Positions 1 to 4,111 of a stretch of DNA of 4,111 nucleotides are shown here, in pieces. Source of the stretch: a virus (Duplodnaviria; Heunggongvirae; Uroviricota; Caudoviricetes). A model generated the notes under the pieces. The model was not told the DNA's origin. It saw nothing but the letters and a program-made list of their open reading frames with translations, and did no database searches. Each line of letters opens with the position of its first letter. The first letter of the stretch is position 1. The stretch lies in the IMG/VR virus record IMGVR_UViG_2706794699_000009, one strand, 5' to 3'. The position numbers and the translations under genes are program-made.

Positions 1-67
1 CAATCGTCAGCGTCGTCACTCTCGTCTGGGGAATATCTCCCCGGCAGCCTTCAGGGAAAAATATCAT
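1..67 (-). CDS. Possible 5' end of an unidentified ORF running off the left edge (ATG at 65-67), or the out-of-frame continuation of the 79-474 ORF
   Basis: Minus-strand frame is open from the ATG at 65-67 to the window edge (MIFFPEGCRGDIPQTRVTTLTI...). No obvious Shine-Dalgarno. The same frame would be reached from the 79-474 ORF if the A7 run at 81-87 had one more base. Too short to judge. Confidence 0.2.
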   Translation of the reverse strand, partial: MIFFPEGCRGDIPQTRVTTLTI

Positions 68-78
68 CAGATGGCTGC

Positions 79-432
79 TTAAAAAAAGAACAAATGGTAG
101 TGTCCGCTATTGCCAGTACACCTCAATTGCTCTGCGGCTTCGCTCAGAGCTGGCGTATGTTCCCGGCCTACTGATTCACACAGGTAATCAACGAAACCGG
201 ACACCAGTTTTCGTTCGCGAGGCGTGATCGCCCCACCGACCGGAGTCCAGTAATCGAAACCCAGTTGCAGGAGTTTGAAAAAACGCTTGTGGAATGCGTA
301 GTTACACACACGCTTAAAGTCTGCGTGTATCCACTCACCTATTTTGATTTGATGCAGAAAATCGCAACTCTCCGGCGTCGCCGGGAGAAGTAATCCGGAA
401 GAGGTTTGTTTGACCAGTTGTATATGTGCCAT
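79..432 (-). CDS. Hypothetical small phage protein (nin-region-like), family not recognised
   Basis: Minus-strand ORF with stop at 79-81. ATG at 430-432 is preceded by GGAG at about 7 nt spacing (CCGGAGAAAGCCGATG). The ORF track extends it to a TTG at 472-474 that overlaps the upstream stop (TTGA); I prefer the ATG. The ORF ends in a T7 homopolymer on the minus strand. Confidence 0.55.
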   Translation of the reverse strand: MAHIQLVKQTSSGLLLPATPESCDFLHQIKIGEWIHADFKRVCNYAFHKRFFKLLQLGFDYWTPVGGAITPRERKLVSGFVDYLCESVGREHTPALSEAAEQLRCTGNSGHYHLFFF

Positions 433-1134: not shown

Positions 1135-1821
1135 TCACTCCTTCTCTTCTTTACCGTAGTGGAGTTGACCAATTTTGATAAGAGGGCGTCCCTGAGATTT
1201 GCGGTGTAGATTGGTATCGCGCAGAGAATACACACAGCCACAATATTCCTGCTGATAGAATTTTTCGCGCTTGCTGATTTCAATCATACGGGACGAGCCG
1301 CCCTGCTTGCGCCAGTTATAATCCCAGTACACCATGCCCGGATAATGCGCGACGGCTCGCCGCCCACAGTCGTTAACCTGCTGCATATTTTTCCAGCGTG
1401 AAATGCCCAGTGAACTGCTGATCACACTGAAACCATTTTCAGCGGCGTACAGCGCTGTCCGCTCAAAACGCATGTCAAAACACATGGTGCAACGGATCCC
1501 TCGTTCGGGCTCCCATTCCATTCCTTTGGCTCGTTCAAACCAGTTGTCTGTGTCGTAATCAGCATCAATAAACGGCACGCCGTGTTGTTCAGCAAAGCGA
1601 ATATTCTCATCCTTACGAATTAAATACTCTTTCTGAGGATGAATGTTCGGGTTGTAGAAAAAGATGGTGTAGTCGATTCCCGAGGCCTGAAGCGCCTCCA
1701 TCACCTCACCGGAACATGGAGCACAGCAAGAGTGCAGTAGTAGTTTGTTTGCCCCGTTTGGGAGCTCCAATTTGGGCCGTTTGAAATCAGCAACTGTCAT
1801 AAATATGTTTATTGGGGTCAT
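1135..1821 (-). CDS. queH: QueH-like protein (DUF208 family, epoxyqueuosine reductase-like Fe-S enzyme)
   Basis: 228-aa ORF with the N-terminal [11 protein letters not shown] motif I recognise as the DUF208/QueH signature, plus further Cys at 111, 114 (CTMC), 152 and 194/196 (CGC). Start is ambiguous between the ATG at 1819-1821 and the ATG at 1798-1800; neither has a strong SD. Call rests on motif recollection, not a search. Confidence 0.65.
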
Positions 1822-1968: not shown

Positions 1969-2382
1969 TTATTCAGTTCTGGATTTTGTCGCCCTGCGTA
2001 TCCGCGCTTTCGCGTTACGCTCAATCTGTATCAGCTTTTCTATATTTCTCCGCCTTTCCTGTTCCTCCTGGCGCAATAGCCTTACATCATCTGCCAGTCT
2101 GGTTTCTCTTTTTGCCACAGAGAGCATCCAGTCAAACGGCTCCACAACCGCACCGCAGATTTTACAGCGGACCTGACGCTCTTTTTCGTCAACCCGTACA
2201 GAGGCGTGATGGCAATATGGTCTTTCCGATGGCTCATAAAGAAAATTAACCTGATTACGAGGGTCATCCTCTTTTACCGGAAATAAAACGATATTGCTTA
2301 ACTCATCTTCTGGTTTTATTTCCATGCTCCTCTCCTTTGATGCGAATGCCAGCGGTAATTGAAGCCTGATAGCTAATTTCAT
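1969..2382 (-). CDS. Small hypothetical phage protein with a Cys/His cluster and a basic, coiled-coil-like C-terminus
   Basis: ORF with stop at 1969-1971. Two candidate starts: the ATG at 2380-2382 directly abutting the upstream TGA (TGAATG), or the internal ATG at 2323-2325 preceded by AAGGAGAGGAG (118-aa product). Contains C38-H39-H40 and C54-x-x-C57 (numbered from the internal start) and an R/E/K-rich tail. Confidence 0.6.
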   Translation of the reverse strand: MKLAIRLQLPLAFASKERSMEIKPEDELSNIVLFPVKEDDPRNQVNFLYEPSERPYCHHASVRVDEKERQVRCKICGAVVEPFDWMLSVAKRETRLADDVRLLRQEEQERRRNIEKLIQIERNAKARIRRATKSRTE

Positions 2383-2819: not shown

Positions 2820-3323
2820 CTACTTAACAACCCTCGAATGGCTAACATTCGGACGCCAGCTCTCCCAGTTAAAATTCACCCAGCGCCCGCCGTTCATGAN
2901 NNNNNNNNNNNNNNNNNNNNNNNNNNNNNNNNNNNNNNNNNNNNNNNNNNNNNNNNNNNNGATAGCTGCCGCTAAGTGATTCTTCCCGGTACCAGGTTTT
3001 CCGCTGAACGCAAAATTTGTACACCCGGTCATCAGTTCATCGGCGATGGATTTCGCCTGGCTTAACGCGTATCGCTGGCCGTCGTTCTGCACCTGGTAAT
3101 TCGCAAACGAGCATTTACGGTGCAACGGCTGGATGCCTGAGCGATTCAGAATTTTTTCCACCCGCAACTGGCGATTCAGGCGGTTGATCTCCTCGCTACG
3201 TTTCTGGCCTTCAGCAAGTTGCCACTCGCGCCACTCCGCTACCGTTCTGAATGGGGCGGTTACATGTGGCGGGGTCAGTCGGCGGATGCGTTCCAGAACG
3301 CCGCCTGTCGCAATATTTTTCAT
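2820..3323 (-). CDS. dnaC: DnaC-like helicase loader (AAA+ ATPase), coding sequence interrupted by an N run
   Basis: ATG at 3321-3323. N-terminal 121 aa align with E. coli DnaC as recalled, including Walker A FSGKPGTGKNHLAAAI. After the N run the frame resumes with WVNFNWESWR, matching the DnaC C-terminus (WVIFNWDSYR). About 100 residues between these are absent. Confidence 0.85.
   Translation of the reverse strand: MKNIATGGVLERIRRLTPPHVTAPFRTVAEWREWQLAEGQKRSEEINRLNRQLRVEKILNRSGIQPLHRKCSFANYQVQNDGQRYALSQAKSIADELMTGCTNFAFSGKPGTGKNHLAAAIXXXXXXXXXXXXXXXXXXXXXMNGGRWVNFNWESWRPNVSHSRVVK
2900..2960. other. Run of 61 N inside the dnaC-like gene (gap, not length-preserving)
   Basis: Literal n characters at 2900-2960. 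Flanking translations correspond to DnaC residues roughly 118 and 223, so about 300 bp of real sequence is represented by 61 N. Confidence 0.9.
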
Positions 3324-3329
3324 GGTCCG

Positions 3330-4032
3330 TTACCCCCTGAAGCCTGGCGGGATCGCACTGTCCGGCAACGAGACGGTGTTAACCTGTCGGAGCAACGTCT
3401 CAGGCCGAACACCTTTCGGCGCGAACAGGCCCTGGTATTCATTGGCGATGCTGTGTCGAATCACCTGCTCAGGTGTAAAACCCTGCTGACGGAATTTTTC
3501 CAGTTCCCGTATCGCCCCGTTAGCGCCCTGCTCCGTTCGAATCGGTTTTCGCAATGCCTGTCTGAACCGGACCCACTCATGCCAGAGTGTTTCCGGCAAC
3601 CAATCGGGCAGCTCAATAGCCTCCGGCTCGAATTTTTTAGACGCTCGTTTTTGGCGAGGGGGAGATCAGTATTTAGATCTTCCTCTTCCTCTTCCTCTGG
3701 TAACGCTTTTTGATCCGTTTGTGTAACGCTGGCAGCGTTACCTTTTCGTTTCAGTTCGCGTATTTTTGTTACTCGCTCGTTTGTAACCGCCCGTTTTTTT
3801 TAGAGCTTTTTCCGTTATGACGTTCAAAGTTAGGTAGAGAAAGCCCTCCGTCATTTTCGACCAGCCATCCAACCTGAATTAACGCATCAGCAAAACCAGA
3901 CATAAAAGTGATGCGATCTATTGCACTTTTTGTAACGCCGCGAGCGTTACAATCTGCATTACCGTCTATCATTTGTTGATCCGCCCATGCCCAGAAGCGA
4001 ATAACCTGAGGTAGCCTGAGTTTAACGGACAC
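3330..4032 (-). pseudogene. Phage replication protein with a DnaT-like C-terminal domain, broken by two single-base frame breaks; 5' end lies in or against the IS end
   Basis: Three minus-strand segments in different frames: 4032->3769 (N-terminal 87 aa, GTG start), about 3801->3662 (KKRAVTNERV...PEEEEEEDLNTDLP) and 3665->3330 (SPPRQKRASKKFEPEAIELPDWLPETLWHEW...VNTVSLPDSAIPPGFRG). The last segment matches the E. coli DnaT C-terminus as recalled (YPDWQPD...VNTVSEPDSQIPPGFRG). Frames join if the T8 run at 3794-3801 and the G5 run at 3658-3662 each gain one base. Stop at 3330-3332 lies 6 nt before the dnaC-like ATG. Confidence 0.65.
3679..3698. repeat. Hexanucleotide tandem repeat (TCCTCT)x3 encoding a poly-Glu stretch in the replication protein
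   Basis: Plus strand cttcctcttcctcttcctct; on the minus strand this is GAG GAA x3, giving EEEEEE in the middle frame segment. Confidence 0.8.
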
Positions 4033-4111
4033 TCCTTCCTGAAATAGAATGGCATCAGAAGGAGCTAATAATGAGCAGAAAAACCCAACGTTACTCTAAA
4101 GAGTTCAAAGC
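4007..4111 (+). mobile_element. Left end of an IS3-family insertion sequence (IS600-like), running off the right edge
   Basis: Plus-strand ORF starting at 4071 encodes MSRKTQRYSKEFKA, the typical N-terminus of IS3-family OrfA (HTH transposase subunit). Candidate left terminus TGAGG at 4007-4011, 64 bp upstream of the orfA ATG. The boundary is approximate. Confidence 0.5.
4071..4111 (+). CDS. IS3-family transposase OrfA, N-terminal 13 codons (partial)
   Basis: ATG at 4071-4073 preceded by AAGGAG at 4059-4064 (6-nt spacing). Translation MSRKTQRYSKEFK... continues off the window. Confidence 0.55.
   Translation, partial: MSRKTQRYSKEFK

Follow-up and report, generated by a model that had tools for sequence, protein, structure and literature searches.

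A ydaU-family replication-initiator pseudogene of a Rac-like prophage in Shigella sonnei with an IS600 insertion, a 10-bp deletion and a poly-A frameshift

In the 4,111-nt stretch of DNA analysed here (the window), we found on the minus strand the remnant of a replication-initiator gene, which is very probably a genuine, population-fixed pseudogene of the ydaU family in a Rac-like lambdoid cryptic prophage of Shigella sonnei. Aligned to three intact genes, by which the lesions were defined, the copy carries three independent ones: an IS600 insertion, a run of eight A residues where the intact genes have six, and a 10-bp deletion between two 7-bp direct repeats (Table 1). A preliminary description made from the sequence alone had noticed the split of the gene and had listed, in order of likelihood, under-called homopolymers in the assembly, true pseudogenisation in a decaying prophage and programmed frameshifting; the second of these proved to be the correct explanation. 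The three lesions leave no single uninterrupted YdaU ORF, and the window copy is a pseudogene of the YdaU family, not a functional member.

Table 1 Features of the window, with position, strand and supporting evidence or remark.
Feature	Position	Strand	Evidence or remark
Right end of second, identical IS600 in the same orientation; truncates DUF1367 gene	1..125	+	DUF1367 Pfam match
QueH (epoxyqueuosine reductase), intact prophage cargo	1135-1821	-	Pfam E = 1.9e-65
137-aa ORF (118 aa in assemblies), downstream of DUF977 gene	1969-2382	-	weak zinc-ribbon match PF08271, below cutoff
ydaV, DnaC-like helicase loader, downstream partner of ydaU	2820..3323	-	PHROG 50, E = 9.8e-83
Stop codon TAA of ydaU remnant	3330-3332	-	
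89-aa ORF, DnaT-C-terminal-domain-like, inside third segment	3330-3599	-	
Third segment of remnant, DnaT-C-terminal-domain-like part of YdaU	3330..3656	-	phmmer, intact homologue against PDB
ydaU-family prophage replication-initiator remnant	3330..4006	-	codons 36-262 of the intact 262-aa gene; three frames
Lone remaining TCCCCCT repeat, 10-bp deletion junction, frameshift site 2	3657..3663	-	intact form TCCCCCTAAATCCCCCT
Hexanucleotide tandem repeat GAGGAA (sense), 3.5 copies, encoding linker Glu run	3678..3698	-	TRF
A8 run (T8 on + strand), frameshift site 1	3794..3801	-	alignment, run-length tally, SNP polarity
3-bp target-site duplication copy (GGT on sense strand) from IS600 insertion	4004..4006	.	
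Left end of IS600, inverted repeat and orfA start at 4071	4007..4111	+	

The coding sense on the minus strand of 3300-4060 passes through frames 1, 0 and 2, both changes being in the -1 direction. Frame 1 opens with a GTG at 4032 and reaches its stop at 3769, the linker (KKRAVTNERV...EEEEEEDLNTDLP) is read in frame 0, and frame 2 continues from SPPRQKRASKK... to ...IPPGFRG at the terminal stop codon. The two homopolymers to which the breaks had been ascribed, T8 at 3794-3801 and G5 at 3658-3662 on the plus strand, are both present, and each downstream frame opens, as described, at a stop codon adjoining the run. Moreover, adding one base per run yielded the expected continuous protein of about 235 aa, namely a 705-nt, 234-aa ORF ending in ...VNTVSLPDSAIPPGFRG. 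Its anticipated collinearity with intact 262-aa homologues holds throughout the alignment, except that the repaired ORF has one additional Lys and lacks three residues. The single added base restores the frame at each run because +2+1 = 3 and -10+1 = -9, and the sequence repaired in this way is not the ancestral one. A frame that is restored by one base at a homopolymer is no proof that one base was lost, which is the methodological lesson of this locus: what looked like one-base losses was produced by an IS insertion and a 10-bp deletion.

The intact counterpart was recovered by megablast, in which 681 of 5,426 complete E. coli genomes gave a match covering at least 80% of the query. The annotated intact genes are 93-98% identical at the DNA level, with 97-98% for the best of them over window 3330-4006. 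The matched gene is a 789-bp CDS encoding 262 aa, with ydaT on one side and ydaV on the other; it is annotated in one matched record as 'phage replication initiator YdaU family protein' and in phage Rac (MN652886) as ydaU. Membership of this family is supported by sequence, as PHROG 2509 ('replication initiation protein') matches the intact homologue end to end (residues 1-262 of 262, E = 1.2e-89), which also bears out the earlier designation as a phage replication gene, and by the position between ydaT and the DnaC-like ydaV. In locus L004, the gene order is YdaT_toxin, ydaU 5' fragment, IS600, ydaU remnant and IstB/DnaC-like gene, and the intact loci have the same order.

At the first frameshift site, the intact genes have A6 (TCT AAA AAA CGG) versus A8 in the window. 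At the second site, intact GATCTCCCCCTAAATCCCCCTCGCC corresponds to GATCTCCCCCTCGCC in the window, i.e., GATC-TCCCCCTAAA-TCCCCCT-CGCC versus GATC-TCCCCCT-CGCC, a 10-bp deletion between 7-bp direct repeats rather than the single-base deficit that had been proposed for the G5 run. The deficit proposed for the T8 run is likewise at odds with the common A6 allele, relative to which two bases are added, although it probably applies relative to the rarer A9 allele, the immediate ancestor. The deletion, which between two TCCCCCT repeats is typical of replication slippage, would have put the DnaT-like domain out of frame, and the A8 run most probably arose by a change from A6 to A9, giving an in-frame extra Lys, followed by the loss of one base. 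Among 118 related loci, about 91 contain one uninterrupted ORF ending in ...PPGFRG, all with A6; these ORFs are 260-264 aa long, or 374-378 aa with a different N-terminus. At loci with A7, A8 or A9, the ORF is always truncated.

The IS600 insertion, which removes the true ydaU start, was overlooked in the first reading of the sequence. All E. coli genome matches begin only at query base 54 (window 4007) and homology stops at 4006, contradicting the gene start proposed at 4032: the GTG at this position and the first eight codons of the proposed ORF (VSVKLRLP) are IS600 sequence, and about 35 true N-terminal ydaU codons are missing from the window. Codons 1-35 were located beyond the element in L004, where they are called as a 41-aa ORF. 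There, ...GGGAAGGT precedes IS600 and GGTTATTCG... follows it, versus GGGAAGGTTATTCG in the intact gene, with GGT duplicated. The full-length element in matching assemblies measures 1264 bp and has the ends TGAGGT...ACCTCA; its HTH_Tnp_1 and rve ORFs and the 3-bp target duplication place it in IS600 (IS3 family), and PLSDB annotates it as 'IS3-like element IS600 family transposase'. Oriented opposite to ydaU, it parts the remnant from codons 1-35 and the promoter. Insertion after codon 35, with duplication of the GGT target, would have cut the remnant off from its start codon, and a functional YdaU is presumably absent from strains with this allele.

Considering that both frame breaks lie at homopolymers and that the A-tract length varies from A6 to A9 among database entries, the explanation initially ranked first, i.e., a sequencing or assembly artefact with mis-called homopolymers in an actually intact gene, had to be weighed against the recurrence of the lesions in other assemblies. 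Apart from two N masks, the window agrees with contig AMKI01000039.1 of GCA_000815825.1 at 100% identity. The N runs are not length-preserving: 1033-1053 stands for 277 bp and 2900-2960 for 304 bp, with the L004 counterparts 9223-9499 (hokD toxin region) and 7073-7376 (central ydaV), respectively. The exact ORF products are named Shigella sonnei proteins in source databases (FORC11_0721, FORC11_0720 and SS482266_0802). Furthermore, a chimeric 87-aa product, which spans the IS600 junction as well as the A8 frameshift tail and therefore needs both lesions, was found in its exact form on 492 contigs and, in a separate count, in 481 index blocks. The IS600 junction, the A8 run and the 10-bp deletion were identical in ten out of ten assemblies inspected, which are independent of each other and comprise Illumina short-read drafts and 4.8-Mb long-read contigs. 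In addition, the second break involves no change in homopolymer length, and even with both indels repaired the gene would still be interrupted by IS600. Under-calling, which all of this contradicts, is left with hardly any probability. Neither A8 (best match 71 nt of a 73-nt query, with A6) nor the 10-bp deletion was present in the 5,426 complete E. coli genomes, and an exact scan of a one-genome-per-species genome collection gave no match to the deletion junction. The ydaU lesions are lineage-specific, and assembly error is excluded.

The remnant descends from a two-domain protein for which the description as DnaT-like needs qualification. The C-terminal half of the intact homologue has further matches, to PHROG 6451 ('primosomal protein') and to PHROG 678 ('replication initiation O-like'), and in a phmmer search against PDB its residues 170-262 align to the whole DnaT C-terminal domain (2ru8_A, E = 9.5e-5; 9zbt_D, E = 3.2e-4), a weak match that nevertheless covers the complete domain. 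The tail of the intact YdaU homologue, VNTVSxPDSxIPPGFRG, is nearly identical to that of the DnaT domain (2RU8, 9ZBT). In contrast to DnaT, the N-terminal two-thirds of YdaU are a phage initiator, and the similarity of the C-terminal domains is remote (E ~1e-4). The NCBIfam DnaT equivalog NF002770 reached 16.2 bits versus a cutoff of 201, over the last 19 residues only, and phmmer against PDB gave no alignment to residues 1-91 of DnaT, its N-terminal oligomerisation domain. No Pfam family was matched at E <= 10 by the intact protein or by either of the two fragments, and a DnaT domain is therefore not claimable at Pfam level. A literature search for 'YdaU' together with 'DnaT' found no paper linking them. 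'DnaT-like C-terminal domain', as proposed earlier, is a fair name for this remote homology as judged from sequence, while the protein itself is not a member of the DnaT family.

Intact YdaU consists of a phage-initiator-type N-terminal domain, a charged linker and a DnaT-CTD-like C-terminal domain. Origin binding would fall to the N-terminal domain, and loading of the host helicase to the DnaT-like domain together with the adjacent DnaC-like YdaV. Within the preprimosome, DnaT forms filaments on ssDNA through its C-terminal domain (PMC13377028), and the function of the ydaUVW operon has been described as undetermined (PMC11014345). The fusion of an initiator N-terminus to a DnaT-like C-terminus beside a DnaC-like loader hints at how Rac-type phages may recruit the host helicase; this applies to the YdaU family, which has already been named, and is not particular to the window. 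In its place after ydaT and before the DnaC-like ydaV, the window copy resembles YdaU of K-12 Rac (PHROG 2509), and it has the C-terminal half in common with the K-12-type protein (285 aa) at 92.8% DNA identity. The window copy differs in that it is no intact gene, given the IS600 insertion, the 10-bp deletion and the A8 frameshift, and in its N-terminal domain, which is the 262-aa-type variant without a Pfam match, whereas K-12 YdaU carries DUF1376.

The downstream partner ydaV is intact (248 aa) in matching assemblies; in the window, the N run at 2900-2960 takes the place of 304 bp of the gene. The arrangement resembles O and P of lambda in that an initiator gene is followed by a helicase-loader gene, and YdaU resembles lambda O in its charged linker between two domains. 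Similarly, the lambda origin lies inside the initiator gene, and ydaU has candidate iterons in its linker-coding DNA. The differences are that no sequence homology of YdaU to lambda O was detected outside PHROG 678 'O-like', and that the partner loader is DnaC-like instead of lambda P. Within the linker-coding DNA at 3699-3742, we observed two direct copies of GTAACGCT and a perfect palindrome, GTAACGCTG-c-CAGCGTTAC, and GTTAC/GTAAC motifs continue up to about 3790. The GTAACGCT repeats and the palindrome could be origin iterons, a possible counterpart of the oriJ of Rac, which has been reported as an active origin (PMC3945230).

Programmed recoding, in which two -1 frameshifts or transcriptional slippage on A8 would still yield a full-length initiator, had been called unlikely in the preliminary description, and the comparative data agree. 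Both shifts are indeed -1, and at site 1 a zero-frame AAA AAC after an A forms, as we read the sequence, an in-phase A_AAA_AAC heptamer. A -1 event there would restore the SSKKKRAV of the A9 allele. Runs of eight or more A residues are prone to RNA-polymerase slippage in enterobacteria, and the A8 run reaches this length. An in-phase slippery heptamer is, however, present at site 1 only, since site 2 (GAT CTC CCC CTC GCC) contains no X_XXY_YYZ heptamer. The split architecture is not conserved among homologues, as the ~91 intact ones are single ORFs with A6, and the lesions are limited to one lineage. Moreover, 1264 bp of oppositely oriented IS600 lie between the remnant and its promoter, start codon and first 35 codons. 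We consider recoding extremely improbable.

A tally of the alleles by a pattern scan allowing A6 to A9 covered 116 IMG/VR loci and two genome loci. A6 was found at 105 of these 118 loci and A7 at three (L022, L033 and L116), while six combined A8 with the deletion and IS600; two carried A8 with the deletion and no IS (L055 and L128), and another two A9 with the deletion and no IS (L072 and L120). In the genome collection, the matches of the variable-length pattern were S. flexneri SFBU1023 and E. coli ECMA0423, both with an A6 allele. Among proteins, P0058, a full-length 261-aa protein of S. dysenteriae, has SSKKKRAV, as an A9 allele would give, with PLNPP intact, so that A9 combined with an undeleted repeat is known from protein sequence alone; P0002, a partial S. 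sonnei protein, has KKK and an intact N-terminus. As a mutational hot spot, the A run has changed repeatedly, with A7 on three different SNP backgrounds.

The GAGGAA hexamer varies as well, with 3 to 8 copies in deletion-bearing S. sonnei-type loci and 1 to 4 in intact alleles (loci considered: window 3678-3698, L006, L007, L009, L010, L030, L055, L069, L072, L120 and L128). To judge from the many S. sonnei proteins of 104-109 aa recorded as 'partial', short-read contigs often stop near the hexamer repeat. Together with the IS600 site, this VNTR may offer markers for typing S. sonnei lineages.

This variability could also be read as that of a contingency locus, in which the A run and the hexamer are hypermutable on/off switches and the S. 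sonnei copy is in the OFF state; the occurrence of all lengths from A6 to A9, of A7 on three backgrounds and of one to eight hexamer copies would fit such phase variation. A fast switch should nevertheless vary, and A8 is invariant in the ten S. sonnei assemblies inspected, whereas A6 prevails at the motif-bearing loci (105 of 118) and is present in each of their uninterrupted ORFs. Changes in hexamer number keep the frame and therefore cannot switch expression, and the 10-bp deletion and IS600 make switching irrelevant in S. sonnei, which together render phase variation very unlikely. There is a similarly slight chance that some function has been retained: the 89-aa ORF, which ends six bases before the ydaV start codon, might be expressed (e.g., by read-through from IS600) as a DnaT-like adaptor kept with the helicase loader, or the A run and hexamer might serve as a switch of prophage replication in wider E. 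coli/Shigella.

For the pseudogene, the most parsimonious order of events, as deduced from the allele series, would be A6 to A9 (in frame), the 10-bp deletion, A9 to A8 and finally IS600. At one SNP in the flanking DNA, the derived base is common to all A8 loci, and the ancestral base is found in both A9 loci and in the A6 outgroups; this polarity makes the A8 loci a derived group inside the lineage with the 10-bp deletion. The direction from A9 to A8 rests on this one informative SNP and one protein (P0058), and a direct step from A6 to A8 (+2), with A9 then arising from A8 in a side branch, may have occurred instead. A lone A8 or A9 call at the intermediate IMG/VR loci could also be a technical error. 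With an intermediate allele observed for each step, the A9, deletion, A8 and IS600 alleles provide a compact example of the stepwise decay of a prophage gene.

A separate C-terminal frameshift is common to L130 (S. flexneri SFBU1023), L131 (E. coli ECMA0423) and three IMG/VR loci, where it leads to ORFs of 210-216 aa ending in ...GTGKIPSAGFYT. The initiator was inactivated more than once, by independent events in several lineages.

The locus is an ordinary, already catalogued kind of Shigella genome decay. IS600 is one of five IS families that have expanded across all Shigella species, whose genomes hold hundreds of pseudogenes (Hawkey et al. 2020, PMC7373316), and of the pseudogenes in S. sonnei 50% were attributed to IS alone and a further 12% to an IS together with another lesion (PMC7373316). 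With IS600 and frameshifting indels in one CDS, the ydaU locus falls into this 12% class; it shows no substantive difference from the pattern described there (PMC7373316) and adds one more example, in a prophage gene. Beyond annotation, the locus matters little.

Finally, the surroundings of the remnant are shaped by the same element. The window represents a ~4.4-kb segment between two direct IS600 copies, and the second copy cuts the DUF1367 gene (window 1-125 and 79-474). Because of the two direct copies, most assemblies carry the segment on contigs of 2-5 kb, as seen in 397 out of the 481 index blocks with the 87-aa product. In the S. sonnei drafts L008, L011, L012 and L013, the far side of IS600 is joined, at ~3176-5962, to a K-12-type Rac module with a 285-aa YdaU carrying DUF1376 and a truncated ydaV, and the ydaU 5' fragment is not found at the far side of the element. 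This points to either a second Rac-like prophage with an IS600-mediated rearrangement or joins made in assembly across the identical IS copies. Downstream of the replication module, the QueH gene adjoins the hokD toxin gene.
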